From contig MFUV01000006.1 of NCBI GenBank assembly GCA_001787005.1, positions 16,197-80,196 of the forward strand: DNA of 64,000 nt, written 5' to 3'. Of this stretch, positions 26,676 through 47,552 are shown piece by piece; positions within the stretch are counted from its first letter, which is position 1, and the number at the start of each line of letters is the position of its first letter. Made by a program: the position numbers and the translations under genes. This DNA comes from Candidatus Nomurabacteria bacterium RIFCSPLOWO2_01_FULL_39_18 (GTDB taxonomy: Bacteria; Patescibacteriota; Minisyncoccia; Phycocordibacterales; UBA9973). The notes below the pieces were generated by a model. The model saw nothing but the letters and a program-made list of their open reading frames with translations. It was not told where the DNA came from and searched no databases.

Positions 26676-27302
26676 ATGTCCGATGAGGAAACTAAAAATG
26701 ATATTGAAAATCAGGAGCCAGAAGATCCATCTGAGGTTCTTGAATTTGAATTCAATGAAGACGGCGAAGAAGATTTAAAGAAAACCCTAAGAAAGTTCAG
26801 GGCTGATTTGAAAGTTTGCAAAACCGAAAAAGAAGAATATCTGACTGGCTGGCAAAAAGAGCGAGCCGACTTCGCCAATTATAAAAAAAGTGAGGATGAC
26901 AGGAGAGTCATGATTTCAGAAGCATTGCGGGAGAGAATACTGGCCAGGTTTTTGACGGTGATGGATAGTTTCAATATGGCTTTCGCTAACAGCGAGATGT
27001 GGAATAAGGTAGACGAAAATTGGAGGAAGGGGGTGGAATATATTTACGGGCAGATGAATGCAATTTTCGAAGAATATGGTGTGAAGGAGATAGGCGTGGC
27101 GGGAGAGAGCTTTGATCCCAATATTCACCAGCCGGTAGAAATGATGCCGACAGACAAAAAAGAAGAAGATCATAAAGTAGCAGAAGTAATTCAAAAAGGC
27201 TACAAATTAGGCGACCTGTCTGCGCAGGCAGGACGCGTTATACGTCCTGCCAGGGTGAATGTTTACGAGTTTAAAGAAAAAGAACCAGAGATAGAGCTTT
27301 AG
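26676..27302 (+). CDS. grpE: GrpE nucleotide exchange factor.
   Basis: The C-terminal signature is HQPVEMMP...GYKLGD[LSAQAG]RVIRPARV, with an in-frame 18-mer palindrome insert. The last codons and the stop are supplied by the CAGATAGAG palindrome. Confidence 0.85.
   Translation: MSDEETKNDIENQEPEDPSEVLEFEFNEDGEEDLKKTLRKFRADLKVCKTEKEEYLTGWQKERADFANYKKSEDDRRVMISEALRERILARFLTVMDSFNMAFANSEMWNKVDENWRKGVEYIYGQMNAIFEEYGVKEIGVAGESFDPNIHQPVEMMPTDKKEEDHKVAEVIQKGYKLGDLSAQAGRVIRPARVNVYEFKEKEPEIEL
27215..27232. repeat. 18-nt palindrome CCTGtCTGCGCAGGCAGG, in frame within grpE (LSAQAG).
   Basis: One mismatch from the consensus. Confidence 0.75.
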
Positions 27303-27332
27303 ACTCTTAGATAGAGTCTAAAGCTCTATCTC
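27288..27332. repeat. 45-nt compound palindrome of the CAGATAGAGCTTTAGACTC family straddling the grpE stop codon.
   Basis: gagatagagctttagactc-ttagata-gagtctaaagctctatctc. Confidence 0.7.
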
Positions 27333-27339
27333 TAAGAAA

Positions 27340-28995
27340 ATGAACCAAGAGACTAAAAACTGTATTGATTGCAAAAATGAATTTGAAATAGATTCCGGTG
27401 ATTTGGTTTTGTATGAAAAAATTGGCTTAAAAATTCCGGAGCAGTGCTTCTTTTGTCGGATAAAACAGTATTCTGCTTTTTGGGTTTTTGGAAAATTCAG
27501 GAAGGGGGTCTCAAATTTATCAGGAGAAAGTTTGATTACTGTTTTGCCCTCTAGTCCGAGATATCCTATTTACACATCACATGAATGGTGGGGAGATGCG
27601 TGGGACCCGATGACTTTTGGGCAAGATTATAATTCATCTAGACCCTTTTTTGACCAATTAAAAGAACTTCAAGAAAAAATTCCCCGACCACACCAAGTTA
27701 GTTCAAAGAGTACCAACTGCGACTGGTGTGACGATTCTTGGGATTCAAAGAATTGTTATCTTTGCAGGTCTATTTTAAAATGTGAAAATACAAGTTATGG
27801 TTATCGGATTATAGAAACGAAAGATTCTTTTGATATAGTTTATTCTTTTAATTTACAAAATTCTTACAATTGTTTATTGTGTTACAATTCTTTCAATTTA
27901 AATTTTTCAGAGAATTCCAAAGATTGCATAGACTCGTATTTTCTTTTCGATTGTCGAAATTGTCAGAATTGCTTTATGTGCTGGAATTTACGCAATAAAC
28001 AGTATTGTATTCGAAATAAGCAGTACACAAAAGAAGCATATGAACAAGAACTTAAAAATATTAAATTAGATTCTTATGAAAATGTTGAAAATCTAAAGAA
28101 TGAACTTGAAAATATGTTAAAAAACGAAGCTGTGCATCGCGAGAATTTTAATTTGAAAACTACCAATTCTATTGGGAATTACATGACTAATTGCGACAAG
28201 TGTGTAAATGTTTTTTCTTGGGAAAATTCACAAAATTCACGCAATTCATTAAGGGGTTTAAATACCAAAGATTGTATAGATCAATTAGGTTGTTGGAATA
28301 ATGAAATTTCAGGAGACAATAGCTGTGTCACGGGTGGTTACGAAATAAAGCATTCGTCTTGGTCTGACGGCCGATATTCAGAGTACATCGATCTGTGTAT
28401 TGAAGTTGAACATTGCTTTGGTTGTGTCGGTCTTCGTAAAAAGAAATATTGTATCCTGAATAAACAATATGAGAAAGAAGAATATGAAATTCTGAAAGAT
28501 AAAATTATAAAGGATATGGAAAAAAGGGGAGAATATGGAAAATACTTACCATATTCTATGGGTATATGTGATTATAATTTGTCTAATGGTTTTGTTTATT
28601 TTCCCCAAACTACTAAAGAAGAAATAATAAAAAAAGGTGGCTACTGGTCAGAAGAAAACTTGTCTTCTAAGGATGGGATTTCTTCCGCAAAGCTTCCGGA
28701 TAGTATTCTAGACACAAAACCAGAAATTACTTCACAAGCTCTTATCTGTCCGGAAACTCACTACAGATTTAACATCTCACAAGATGAGTATGAATTTCAC
28801 AAAAATAAAAATTTTGCTTTACCCCGAATACATTTTGATTTAAGAATATTAAAAAAAGTAAAGAAAATTACCGCACTTAGGGGTTATCCCTACCAATGTA
28901 TTTATTGCTCAAAAAACATCAATGCCTATTATCCGCCAGAATGGGGATACCAAAAAATCGCCTGCGAAGATTGTTATAAAAAAAATATCGCCTAA
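27340..28995 (+). CDS. Large cysteine-rich protein, paralog 1 of 5. It has an N-terminal CxxC-17-CxxC zinc ribbon, a central Cys-repeat region and two C-terminal zinc ribbons.
   Basis: The N-terminus reads KNCIDCKNEFEIDSGDLVLYEKIGLKIPEQCFFCR. Repeated NCxxC...CxNCxNCFxCxNLRNKQYCIxNKQYTKEAY units follow. The C-terminus contains two CxxC pairs (CIYCSKN...CEDCYKKNIA); the YAPERPEIVYCEKCYQQEVY tail of paralogs 2-5 is absent. Confidence 0.55.
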   Translation: MNQETKNCIDCKNEFEIDSGDLVLYEKIGLKIPEQCFFCRIKQYSAFWVFGKFRKGVSNLSGESLITVLPSSPRYPIYTSHEWWGDAWDPMTFGQDYNSSRPFFDQLKELQEKIPRPHQVSSKSTNCDWCDDSWDSKNCYLCRSILKCENTSYGYRIIETKDSFDIVYSFNLQNSYNCLLCYNSFNLNFSENSKDCIDSYFLFDCRNCQNCFMCWNLRNKQYCIRNKQYTKEAYEQELKNIKLDSYENVENLKNELENMLKNEAVHRENFNLKTTNSIGNYMTNCDKCVNVFSWENSQNSRNSLRGLNTKDCIDQLGCWNNEISGDNSCVTGGYEIKHSSWSDGRYSEYIDLCIEVEHCFGCVGLRKKKYCILNKQYEKEEYEILKDKIIKDMEKRGEYGKYLPYSMGICDYNLSNGFVYFPQTTKEEIIKKGGYWSEENLSSKDGISSAKLPDSILDTKPEITSQALICPETHYRFNISQDEYEFHKNKNFALPRIHFDLRILKKVKKITALRGYPYQCIYCSKNINAYYPPEWGYQKIACEDCYKKNIA

Positions 28996-29084
28996 AAATT
29001 AAAAAAGCATAATAGTACAATAAACGCTACCGCTACCATTGTACTATTATTGTTTTTTTTATTATAAAATGATAAAATATTTTC

Positions 29085-46353: not shown

Positions 46354-46408
46354 GGAAACGCTTGACCAAGAGTTGTTTGCGAGTATAATATCACTATGTC
46401 AAAAGACC

Positions 46409-46440
46409 CCGAACGAAAGCAAGGCTTCGTACGGGGCAAG
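46409..46440 (+). promoter_or_regulatory. Conserved 32-nt motif (second copy) 14 nt upstream of dnaJ; it can form a CCCCG...CGGGG hairpin.
   Basis: ccgaacgaaagcaaggcttcgtacggggcaag is near-identical to 7179-7210. Confidence 0.4.
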
Positions 46441-46454
46441 CTATTATTCAAGAT

Positions 46455-47552
46455 ATGAACAAAGATTATTACAATATATTGGGTATAAACAAAGATGCAA
46501 GTAAGGAAGAAATTAAAAAAGCTTTCTACAAGCTGGCGCATAAATACCATCCTGACAAAAAAGAAGGCAATGAAGCAAAATTCAAACAAGTAAACGAGGC
46601 GTATCAAGTGCTCTCTGATGACAGCAAGCGTTCAAAATATGATCAATTTGGCGCAGGATTTGAAAATATGGGGCAGGGATATGCGAGGGGTCAGGGAGGA
46701 TTTGGCGGTTTTGAAGGGTTTGATTTTGGAGGTTTTCAAAATGGCGGTACAGAATTTGATTTCGGCAATCTGAATGATATTTTCAGTGATTTCTTCACAG
46801 GAGGAATGGGCGGAGGAAGGGGGGAAGCGCGCAGAGGCCGGGACATTTCGACCGAAGTGCAGATTTCTTTCCAGGATTCTATTTTTGGCACGAGCAGAAA
46901 AATTTTAATTACGAAAACATCTTCATGTCTCACTTGCAATGGTTCCGGCGCGAAAGCTGGGTCGGGAATGATGACCTGTAAGAAATGTAACGGTCAAGGT
47001 AAGATACATGAAACTAAGAAATCTTTCCTCGGGACTATTTCTAGCACAAAGCTTTGCGAAGAATGCTTCGGTGCCGGCGAAGTGCCGAAAGAATTGTGTG
47101 AAAAGTGTAAAGGGAAAGGTGTCATGCGTCGCGAAGAAGAAATATCGATTTTAATCCCAGCTGGTATTCGCGACGGAGAGATGATTCGCATGACGGGCAT
47201 GGGAGAAGCGGTATCCAAAGGAACAACCGGGGACCTTTATATCAAAATAAACATCACGCCGCATCCCGTGTTTAAACGCGACGGACACGACTTGGTTATG
47301 AATTTAAATTTGAAACTCTCCGATGCGTTACTCGGTACCAAGTATCCAATAGAAACCCTTGATGGCGAGATTGAGGTTACCATCCCCGAAGGCGTCTCCA
47401 TAAATGAAGTTCTGCGAGTGCGCGGCAAGGGCGTGCCGATCGGGAAAAATAAGCGTGGAGATTTACTAATCAAACTCAACATAAAACTTCCTAATAAACT
47501 TTCTCGCAAAGAACGAGATCTCATAGAACAACTCAAAAAGGAGGGGATCTAA
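46455..47552 (+). CDS. dnaJ: Chaperone DnaJ.
   Basis: It has a J-domain with HPD (YHPDKK), a G/F region, four CxxCxGxG repeats and a C-terminal domain. Confidence 0.9.

Follow-up and report, generated by a model that had tools for sequence, protein, structure and literature searches.

The locus described here raises the question of why three Hsp70 chaperone genes, grpE, dnaK and dnaJ, stand far apart in the genome of a tiny groundwater bacterium of the Nomurabacteria, and what the genes lodged between them might do. The locus is part of a 64,000-nucleotide stretch of Candidatus Nomurabacteria bacterium RIFCSPLOWO2_01_FULL_39_18 (contig MFUV01000006.1, positions 16,197 to 80,196), which is called the window throughout and to which coordinates refer. 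Within it, grpE (26676..27302; Pfam GrpE, 9.2e-35), dnaK (33224..35161; Pfam HSP70, 6.5e-243) and dnaJ (46455..47552; Pfam DnaJ, DnaJ_C and DnaJ_CXXCXGXG) all lie on the plus strand, with gaps of 5.9 kb and 11.3 kb on which the Pfam matches and the open reading frame (ORF) coordinates agree. This layout had been recognised in an original prediction made from the letters and their ORFs, and every gene which that prediction named was recovered at its position by Pfam and the ORF list. It took the gaps for two insertions, carrying a cysteine-rich protein family (copies Cys1 to Cys5) and two related ATPases (A and B). As set out below, the split between dnaK and dnaJ is real and derived, and is caused by the ATPase pair. 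The block as a whole may tentatively be read as a native, conserved module of a Nomurabacteria-type Paceibacterium, in which the soluble ATPases and a DUF8128 membrane protein would together make up a split type IV coupling protein (T4CP) with the cysteine-rich proteins as its clients.

Much of bacterial diversity belongs to the Patescibacteria (CPR), the majority of which are thought to be attached to host cells. In the one genetically tractable member, a chromosomal type IV secretion system (T4SS) is essential for epibiotic growth, and, to our knowledge, recognised relaxases are almost absent from the group.

Two paralogous ATPases of the coupling-protein type

ATPase A (36618..38771, plus strand; 717 aa as an ORF) comprises a soluble nucleotide-binding domain (NBD) of the T4CP type, a zinc finger at residues 456-488 and a low-complexity tail of ~230 aa, and ATPase B (44842..46353, plus strand; 503 aa) is a short soluble protein of the same type with matches to DUF87, TraG-D_C and TrwB_AAD_bind. 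The true start of A is probably 36633, since a near-consensus -10 box (TTGAAA-16-TATAAT, 36599-36626) runs over the ATG at 36618 and the NCBI product has 712 aa. The two proteins are 44% identical over 436 aa. In Pfam, A matches TrwB_AAD_bind with 40.0 bits (cut-off 20.5; residues 36-354; 2.9e-10), T4SS-DNA_transf with 26.6 (cut-off 20.1) and TraG-D_C with 28.0 (cut-off 22), while B reaches 23.0 for TrwB_AAD_bind and 24.2 for TraG-D_C, again above the cut-offs; DUF87 matches of 27.9 and 29.7 bits (cut-off 23.2) overlap those to the coupling-protein families. When a profile of both types was compared with the sequences of the PDB, the best match was TrwB (E 2e-6), confined to the Walker A region. 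Judged by these matches, A and B are T4CP-type (VirD4/TrwB-like) ATPases and form two ancient paralogs.

Across the sampled lineages the two fall into clear orthologous types, A-type proteins having 558-921 aa with a low-complexity tail and B-type proteins 482-520 aa. The N-terminal transmembrane (TM) segment by which T4CPs are otherwise recognised is absent from both, the maximal 19-residue hydropathy being 1.13-1.14. The finger of A has the form CxxC-x17-CxxC, scores 46.8 bits with PF23477 (zf_Tbcl_2; cut-off 27, 2.3e-12) and 49.5 bits with TIGR04272 (cut-off 36, 2.6e-13), and recurs in 39 of 46 full-length A proteins. Co-evolution of this finger with the cysteine-rich family was considered and rejected, as the finger is present in 16 loci without a Cys gene.

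In relatives with a syntenic locus, ATPase B is 81-90% identical to the window protein, as is DnaK (81-90%), whereas the values are 62-75% for ATPase A (where a full-length orthologue is present), 65-83% for DnaJ, 50-73% for CysS and 30-75% for the cysteine-rich copies. B is as conserved as DnaK and is under constraint of a housekeeping level. A survey published in Microb Genom in 2025 counts 5,713 VirD4-type T4CP homologues, spread over 2,918 of the 3,035 genomes of Patescibacteria (PMC12102498); these are very probably the same genes as A and B, and the average of about two homologues per genome that follows from these counts fits the A/B pair.

A probable, separately encoded membrane half

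The surroundings of the ATPases were compared in two samples, one of 85 loci centred on cysteine-rich genes, in which all ORFs were clustered de novo, and one of 80 loci centred on the ATPases; individual loci are given by their L numbers, and both samples are phylogenetically non-independent. Around the ATPases the second sample reveals a wider and older module with the order secD - secF - c11 - c13 - c45 - ATPase. Here, c11 is a protein with Sigma70_r4 and HARE-HTH domains (9179..10207, plus strand, in the window; assigned by Pfam and joined to the family of the other loci by phmmer, 5.9e-53), c13 is a membrane protein of ~450 aa with an N-terminal TM segment and the UniRef name DUF8128 (11204..12568, plus strand), and c45 is a small membrane protein that follows c13. 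Either c13 or c45 is directly upstream of the ATPase in 30 of the 80 loci, and in the window c13 lies 24 kb upstream of the ATPases. In other lineages c11 and c13 adjoin; in the window they are parted by a 129-aa ORF and an IS200-like remnant (10682-11146).

The relationship between c13 and the ATPases is illuminated by a plasmid of Shouchella clausii (NZ_CP012476.1), on which a single 883-aa 'DUF87' protein (WP_248290882.1) combines a c13-like half with an ATPase half. Its N-terminal half (residues 56-313) aligns with residues 94-452 of c13 at 22% identity (E 5e-11), and its C-terminal half with ATPase B at 25% identity (E 2e-20). The fusion gene is followed by genes for Replic_Relax, TcpC, TcpE and AAA_10 (VirB4-like) proteins, and plasmid homologues are annotated as T4SS coupling proteins or DUF87 proteins. 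From this fusion we infer that the Patescibacterial ATPases appear to be the soluble half of a split coupling protein, with DUF8128 as the putative membrane half acting in trans; such a split would explain why A and B are devoid of TM segments.

The sampled loci can be arranged in four states. In the first, found in distant relatives (44-49% identity), c11 and c13 precede a single A-type ATPase and Cys genes are absent (L153-L162). The second has the tandem c13 - c45 - B - A, likewise without Cys genes (L129, L138, L142, L145). In the third, Cys arrays stand beside or between both ATPases in several orders (L118, L119, L026, L031, L072, L082, L006, L042). The fourth, that of the window's clade, is dnaK - A - (0-3 Cys, sometimes with the ABC exporter, DUF5674 and the 96-aa ORF described below) - B - dnaJ. 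Unsplit Hsp70 genes already occur near the module in other lineages: L157 has grpE - dnaK - x - dnaJ a few genes upstream of it, L158 likewise has grpE and dnaK upstream, and in L104 dnaK - x - dnaJ directly precedes secD - secF - c11 - c13 - c45 - B. The closeness of the Hsp70 genes to the module predates the split, and L157 and L104 therefore mark the Hsp70 neighbourhood as old synteny.

Other genes have been seen next to A-type ATPases. In L159 (2097-8023) and L162 (2678-5311), secA comes right after the ATPase, and in L159 pilB and pilC follow; as secD-secF stand before the module in many lineages, its neighbours include several export genes. In lineages outside the dnaK context (L014, L082, L126, L135), a predicted surface protein of ~460-500 aa is encoded directly after the A-type ATPase; that of L082, the sole one scanned with Pfam, combines Lamin-tail and PKD domains with an anchor-like segment at the C-terminus.

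A large family of cysteine-rich proteins

Three cysteine-rich genes follow grpE in tandem, namely Cys1 (27340..28995; 551 aa, 32 Cys; family hidden Markov model (HMM) 2.8e-259; no Pfam or NCBIfam match), Cys2 (29085..30794; 569 aa; 7e-275) and Cys3 (30831..32553; HMM fragments 5e-157 and 1.5e-94), and two more lie before ATPase B, namely Cys4 (41303..42979; 558 aa; 1.1e-263) and Cys5 (43016..44758; 580 aa). All are on the plus strand, and according to the family HMM these five are the only copies in the window. The third gene of the first array had been described as frameshifted, and it is indeed a pseudogene: from the ATG at 30831 its translation reads MNNQSEKRICQNCKK...GK*, after which other frames carry on, the two lesions being one frameshift near 30907 and a 5-nt duplication (TTGAA) near 31960. 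The frameshift is reproducible, because a 310-aa Cys3 fragment is on record from 13 contigs.

The family comprises 5,465 representatives at 50% identity, 2,335 of them at E <= 1e-30, and a length of about 500-625 aa is shared by nearly all of the best 150. All named matches are Patescibacterial and none carries a functional name, 'hypothetical protein' being almost always the annotation. Some copies stand alone, others in tandem arrays with as many as 9 members. In the alignment, the other window paralogs are 30-34% identical to the first copy, and identity among one another is about 30-45%, whereas the databases contain many proteins that are 70-80% identical to Cys1 and Cys5; this difference suggests old, selectively maintained paralog groups with turnover in copy number.

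The two families for which the original prediction knew of no described system fared differently in HMM searches: the ATPases match known T4CP families, while single-sequence scans of the cysteine-rich proteins return no Pfam or NCBIfam model. The latter family also proves uncharacterised in print, as the literature searched holds no paper that describes it or its pairing with the ATPases. Several candidate identities were tried and rejected. A Pfam scan of 16 members gave weak matches to treble-clef fingers only, a profile search against PDB sequences gave nothing, Foldseek found no PDB structure below E 1e-3, and a HUH relaxase finds no place here, since no invariant His is present among the 18 invariant columns. 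The C-terminus of Cys4 weakly matches zf_Tbcl_2 in Pfam (1.5e-4) and scores 21.9 and 17.2 bits with PF23477 and TIGR04272, below the cut-offs, so that the family is similar to zf_Tbcl_2 and not a certified member of it.

An AlphaFold2 model of Cys5 built from 119 sequences (pLDDT 89.6, pTM 0.88) supersedes an earlier run with 16 sequences, which had yielded a poor solenoid (pLDDT 73.7), and confidently predicts a fold of zinc ribbons combined with a beta-solenoid. At the N end of the model there is a C4 zinc ribbon and a conserved WWxDxWDP/PFFxQF domain; the middle consists of two beta-solenoid segments, each closed by a CxxCxxCxxC...C 'knot' and a helix; and the C end has a second zinc ribbon, followed by a finger like that on ATPase A. 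Conserved cysteines form four or five clusters (C8/11/36/39, C196/205/208/211, C357/366/375, C483/486/511/514 and C533/553/571/574). The knots and the N-terminal domains, that is, the first zinc ribbon and the WWxDxWDP region, are the most conserved parts, and the solenoids are less so. The solenoids are acidic and the zinc-ribbon segments basic, with a pI of 5.9-7.3 for the whole proteins. A classical signal peptide is unlikely, because no paralog has a strongly hydrophobic stretch.

Two side observations concern the company that family members keep elsewhere. On an 800-kb ENA scaffold (L002, 1-21704), four or five members lie within 21.7 kb with no ATPase near, interleaved with genes for ribonucleotide reductase (RNR), a thioredoxin-like protein, DsbB, pilB, pilC, a pilin, triosephosphate isomerase (TIM) and phosphoglycerate kinase (PGK), and the DsbB/thioredoxin pair is directly upstream of one cysteine-rich copy. 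Furthermore, a CutA1 gene (101-106 aa; divalent-ion tolerance) is found near ATPase B, Cys arrays or PaaX_M genes in other lineages (L006, L026, L042, L082, L089, L092, L104, L105, L107, L110, L111, L130). No CutA1 homologue was detected in the window. The recurrence may hint at a metal connection of this multi-zinc family.

Recurrent pairing of the two families

In the sample centred on cysteine-rich genes, the ATPase family is by far the commonest neighbour (35 of 85 loci), the next clusters being only the synteny genes around dnaJ, and 34 of the 55 ATPase genes directly abut a Cys gene. Seen from the ATPases, Cys genes are present in 44 of the 80 loci and directly adjacent in 30, and the adjacency is retained in at least five gene orders. 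For about two ATPase genes among several hundred genes, abutment by chance should occur only at the percent level, a rough estimate and not a computed null. Cys-rich arrays are preferentially kept beside the ATPases. The co-localisation noticed in the window thus recurs widely and in different gene orders, though not always. The unit is, however, not the predicted one of an array plus an ATPase occurring twice: between dnaK and dnaJ the relatives show A - (0-3 Cys) - B, and the array between grpE and the PaaX_M gene stands apart from it.

What the module may do

The preferred reading, which is offered tentatively, assumes an ancestral order (grpE-dnaK-x-dnaJ) ... secD-secF - sigma/HARE-HTH - DUF8128 - ATPase. 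Duplication of the ATPase gene would have produced A and B, arrays of genes from a lineage-specific family of multi-zinc beta-solenoid proteins of ~570 aa would have accreted beside and between both copies, and in the window's clade the A...B block would have come between dnaK and dnaJ. A and B might then form a hexameric substrate receptor and motor, possibly of mixed subunits, which DUF8128 would tether to the membrane. The cysteine-rich proteins, on the evidence of their gene neighbourhood, are probably the clients of these coupling ATPases, either as cargo moved across the membrane or as adaptors. The ATPases would grasp them by the constant zinc-ribbon ends, and the variable solenoid faces would be the specific surfaces, differing by paralog. 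The Hsp70 neighbourhood would be inherited synteny, giving at most co-expression, as the run of co-oriented genes that ATPase A opens is closed by dnaJ. The surroundings in secDF, secA-pilB-pilC (the pil genes in L159) and Hsp70 genes are compatible with an export role and prove nothing.

A bolder version appears unlikely to us. It would make the cysteine-rich proteins the missing cargo of the type IV machinery of Patescibacteria, or of a simpler translocon in which DUF8128 joins the coupling ATPases, and would cast them as effectors directed at the host or subunits of an extracellular fibre or adhesin, which A and B would recruit through the zinc-finger ends and which DnaK, DnaJ and GrpE would keep competent for export.

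It is nevertheless important to stress what weighs against the cysteine-rich proteins being clients of a coupling system. Rich in zinc ribbons and lacking a signal peptide, they look cytoplasmic, and tightly folded, metal-bound proteins make poor T4SS cargo. The evidence that would tie them to the ATPases is adjacency, and this is facultative: 36 of the 80 ATPase-centred loci contain no Cys gene (L094, from the window's own clade, among them), and 50 of the 85 loci centred on Cys genes lack an ATPase in the surrounding 10 kb, including the 6-9-copy arrays of L036 and L044 and the scaffold L002. With so many arrays far from an ATPase and so many ATPase loci without Cys genes, the link is frequent but facultative; moreover, orthologues of the copy next to the ATPase are over-represented in the Cys-centred sample. 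Among the window ORFs of at least 100 aa that were scanned, Pfam found neither virB4 nor a gene for a relaxase or channel, seven ORFs below 240 aa lying outside the scan. In the survey only 148 of the 5,713 T4CP genes are near virB4, and the T4CP homologue was not essential for epibiotic growth in Southlakia; the authors of the survey raise exaptation (PMC12102498). Finally, B is very highly conserved, for which a housekeeping role would account no less well than effector delivery.

These last points lead to the first alternative, an exapted cytoplasmic nucleic-acid motor, in which A and B would be a housekeeping DNA or RNA translocase of a soluble FtsK- or HerA-like kind and the cysteine-rich proteins would be nucleic-acid-binding adaptors or regulators. 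Such a motor would suit the DnaK-like conservation of B, and it would suit T4CP homologues that are found in 2,918 of 3,035 genomes compared with 2,417 for VirB4, are almost never near virB4 and were dispensable for Southlakia epibiosis (PMC12102498). The ancient finger of A, the DUF87/HerA matches above cut-off, the DNA-binding upstream partner c11 and the net positive charge of the zinc-ribbon segments would equally be at home in it. The module is, on the other hand, coupled to the membrane proteins DUF8128 and c45 and sits among secD-secF and secA-pilB-pilC (L159, L162), its fused homologue belongs to a conjugation-type gene set, and the cysteine-rich proteins are acidic to neutral overall. 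No NurA, Xer-like or other nuclease or recombinase neighbour was seen beside the ATPases among the window genes and the scanned neighbours of the sampled loci, most neighbours in the 165 loci being unannotated. On balance, the nucleic-acid motor is a doubtful explanation that deserves to be taken seriously.

A second alternative dispenses with any functional link, the cysteine-rich proteins being an independently expanding housekeeping or structural family (for instance intracellular metal-binding or polymer-forming solenoids) that settles in permissive intergenic slots. Arrays away from an ATPase (L002-L004, L034, L036, L044, L055, L062), the many ATPase loci devoid of Cys genes, a copy number between A and B that varies from 0 to 3 within one clade, a dnaK-A junction that gathers 0-5 unrelated small ORFs as well, and the recurrence of the divalent-ion tolerance gene CutA1 in the same neighbourhoods are all as such a family would have them. 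Abutment at 34 of 55 and 30 of 80 is far above the roughly estimated expectation, however, and has been kept through at least five rearranged architectures, which makes independence of the two families improbable.

Origin of the block and the split of the Hsp70 genes

Many relatives have, whole or in part, the arrangement grpE - Cys(n) - PaaX_M(-) - dnaK - A - Cys(n) - B - dnaJ - 192-aa membrane protein - cysS(-), which is met with both in Cys-centred loci (L001, L016, L018, L019, L022, L065, L071, L083) and in ATPase-centred ones (L085-L103, L132). The gene for dnaJ comes immediately after B in 21 of 24 loci. In L085, L092 and L094 no Cys gene lies between A and B, which in L094, a member of the window's clade, are adjacent; it is therefore the ATPase pair, and not the cysteine-rich family, that separates dnaK from dnaJ. 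The unsplit Hsp70 genes that might have been expected in relatives are met with in distant ones (L157, L104, L035), while within the window's clade the split is kept. The association with dnaK and dnaJ is thus clade-specific, whereas the ATPase module and its adjacency to Cys genes are much wider.

Only two parts of the block look inserted, and they are the sole ones absent from all 13 syntenic loci compared. The first is the LUD-domain gene (35181..35798, plus strand; Pfam LUD_dom, 3.3e-28), which is genome-specific at the dnaK junction. The second is an islet ORF on the minus strand (35936..36481; 181 aa, one hydrophobic segment) without a family in Pfam, NCBIfam or PADLOC, whose cluster at 90% identity has 2 members. 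GC content is 0.51 in 35500-36499 compared with about 0.38, so the foreign look of this islet (35800-36530), which had been noticed before, is borne out by its composition and its absence from relatives; the ORF was probably acquired recently from a foreign source, at a junction of dnaK and ATPase A that is variable and has 0-5 unrelated small ORFs, depending on the genome. Elsewhere the composition of the block is native (GC 0.32-0.45, save for 35.5-36.5 kb). The arrangement is therefore old and has been inherited vertically, variation being confined to a single small hotspot.

The idea of two insertions, given this native GC content, the lack of mobility genes and an order kept in relatives with DnaK at 81-90% identity, for the most part does not hold. 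It is accordingly very improbable that two foreign pieces, be they a mobile island or a defence-type HerA/VirD4-like ATPase with cysteine-rich effectors, entered the Hsp70 operon and came to depend on Hsp70: the operon is split in the window's clade and unsplit in distant L157, L104 and L035, the LUD gene and one GC-rich ORF of 0.55 kb are peculiar to this genome, and PADLOC does give the ATPases weak mad8 (E 1e-14 and 6e-12) and HerA matches, yet these are generic P-loop matches with none for the cysteine-rich proteins, no integrase, transposase, bounding repeats or adjacent tRNA were found at the borders of the block (26-48 kb), ATPase B is constrained like DnaK, and 2.9 million viral contigs gave essentially no member of the family, the one marginal match lying at the end of a contig, which removes a phage origin as well. 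The sole tRNA of the 64 kb is tRNA-Tyr at 6672, the sole trace of a transposase is the IS200-like (Y1) remnant at 10682-11146, and an Rfam scan of the 64 kb gave no match at gathering score.

Remaining genes and control signals

The other genes between A and Cys4 also recur in relatives. A DUF5674 gene (38895..39239, plus strand; Pfam 3.2e-34) lies between A and B in L005, L025, L032 and L085 as well; it is followed by a 96-aa ORF (39236..39526, plus strand) that overlaps each neighbour by 4 nt and has homologues in L025, L032, L085 and L092, and by a fused ABC exporter with a TM domain (TMD) and an NBD (39523..41313, plus strand; Pfam ABC_membrane and ABC_tran), which is found inside the module again in L022, L025, L086 and L091. 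The exporter is MsbA-like and generic, every NCBIfam match being under its cut-off. After dnaJ there is a 192-aa polytopic membrane protein (47557..48135, plus strand), as judged by its hydropathy profile, and synteny shows it to be kept in this place in relatives.

The flanks consist of core genes: upstream, on the same strand, clpB, typA, mltG, mnmA, alaS, an ftsA-like gene and a run from S13 to S9 that includes rpoA and L17, and downstream cysS, L21, recR and dnaB. The clpB gene (2448-5168), encoding an Hsp100 disaggregase that works with DnaK, is co-oriented; c11-c13 follow it after 4 kb and grpE after 21.5 kb. A toxin-like PIN-domain gene (21555-21932) separates the genes for ribosomal proteins from the ftsA-like region.

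The locus does not have the form of a canonical heat-shock operon, as its genes are 5.9 and 11.3 kb apart and no CIRCE operator was detected. Control by CIRCE and HrcA was considered and set aside: no CIRCE match with <=3 mismatches was found in the 64 kb, and no HrcA among the neighbours scanned. A sigma70-like site with 11 of 12 matches (33119-33148) precedes dnaK. Promoter-like sites number 58 in total compared with 50 ± 7 in shuffles, and because this is no excess, operon boundaries were drawn from strand and spacing.

A divergent gene upstream of dnaK (32619..33125, minus strand) encodes a winged helix-turn-helix (wHTH) regulator of the PaaX_M, Cas2-like, type (Pfam PaaX_M, 3.6e-20), and this position is kept in the window's clade. 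In L053 a PaaX_M gene directly precedes ATPase B, and in L126 one separates B from A; the regulator may therefore act on the ATPase module, instead of or besides dnaK. Finally, a perfect inverted repeat of 21 nt (100% complementary, with a 5-nt loop; 27287..27333) spans the grpE stop codon, with the start of Cys1 7 nt further on. Termination or attenuation, processing, or a role as an operator are among its possible functions, and no such hairpin was found at the same junction in L065, L071 and L023.

Significance and comparison with known systems

The near-universal 'orphan' T4CP homologues of the Patescibacteria fall into the paralogs A and B, with B core-like in its conservation, and the Paceibacteria possess a very large uncharacterised family, in several copies per small genome, that is repeatedly kept beside them. 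Should its members prove to be cargo or adaptors, the Patescibacterial T4SS machinery would have its first candidate substrates; if not, they stay among the larger unannotated families of reduced genomes, now with a confidently predicted model and candidate metal sites.

Tandem paralogs beside a coupling-protein gene call to mind the virB/virD4-bep locus of Bartonella, where tandem paralogous T4SS substrates share a C-terminal recognition module, the Beps having a BID domain and a charged tail with variable N-termini, and where the channel genes are adjacent. In contrast, the cysteine-rich protein of the window is conserved throughout, its C-terminus is a zinc finger, and its secretion is hypothetical. 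Nor do the known beta-solenoids offer more than a partial likeness. Curli CsgA (8c50) and the antifreeze proteins of ryegrass and insects (3ult, 1m8n, 1ezg) match in the solenoid only, with 2-14% identity, and unlike the cysteine-rich family they are secreted and have no zinc-ribbon ends; the sequence and export signal that define the secreted families (curli, antifreeze proteins, adhesins) are not found in it.

The kind of ATPase, by contrast with what the original prediction supposed, is already known: it is a T4CP of the TMD-less, split variety. T4CPs that have no TMD and work with a small membrane protein make up a named subfamily, represented by TraJ/TraI of pIP501 (PMC7434980), and the Patescibacterial T4SS is assigned to MPF-FATA, the same monoderm-type class as the pIP501 system (PMC12102498, PMC7434980). 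The literature searched appears to contain no description of the duplication into A and B, of DUF8128 as a partner or of the repeated pairing with a very large unannotated multi-zinc solenoid family; the passages of the survey that were searched make no mention of A/B paralogy, a DUF8128 partner, Cys-rich arrays or the dnaK/dnaJ context (PMC12102498).

The Bacillaceae plasmid fusion (WP_248290882.1) resembles the window in uniting, within one protein, a DUF8128-like half and a DUF87 ATPase half, and differs from it in being plasmid-borne, with a single ATPase, no zinc finger and no cysteine-rich neighbours. A further likeness, by description, is that to TraJ/TraI of pIP501, which shares with the window a soluble VirD4/TrwB-type ATPase without a TMD and a separately encoded membrane protein, a small one in pIP501. 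In the window, however, the membrane partner is a 450-aa DUF8128 protein 24 kb away, with no relaxase or channel gene near, and the ATPases are two ancient paralogs that are chromosomal, near-universal and very highly conserved.

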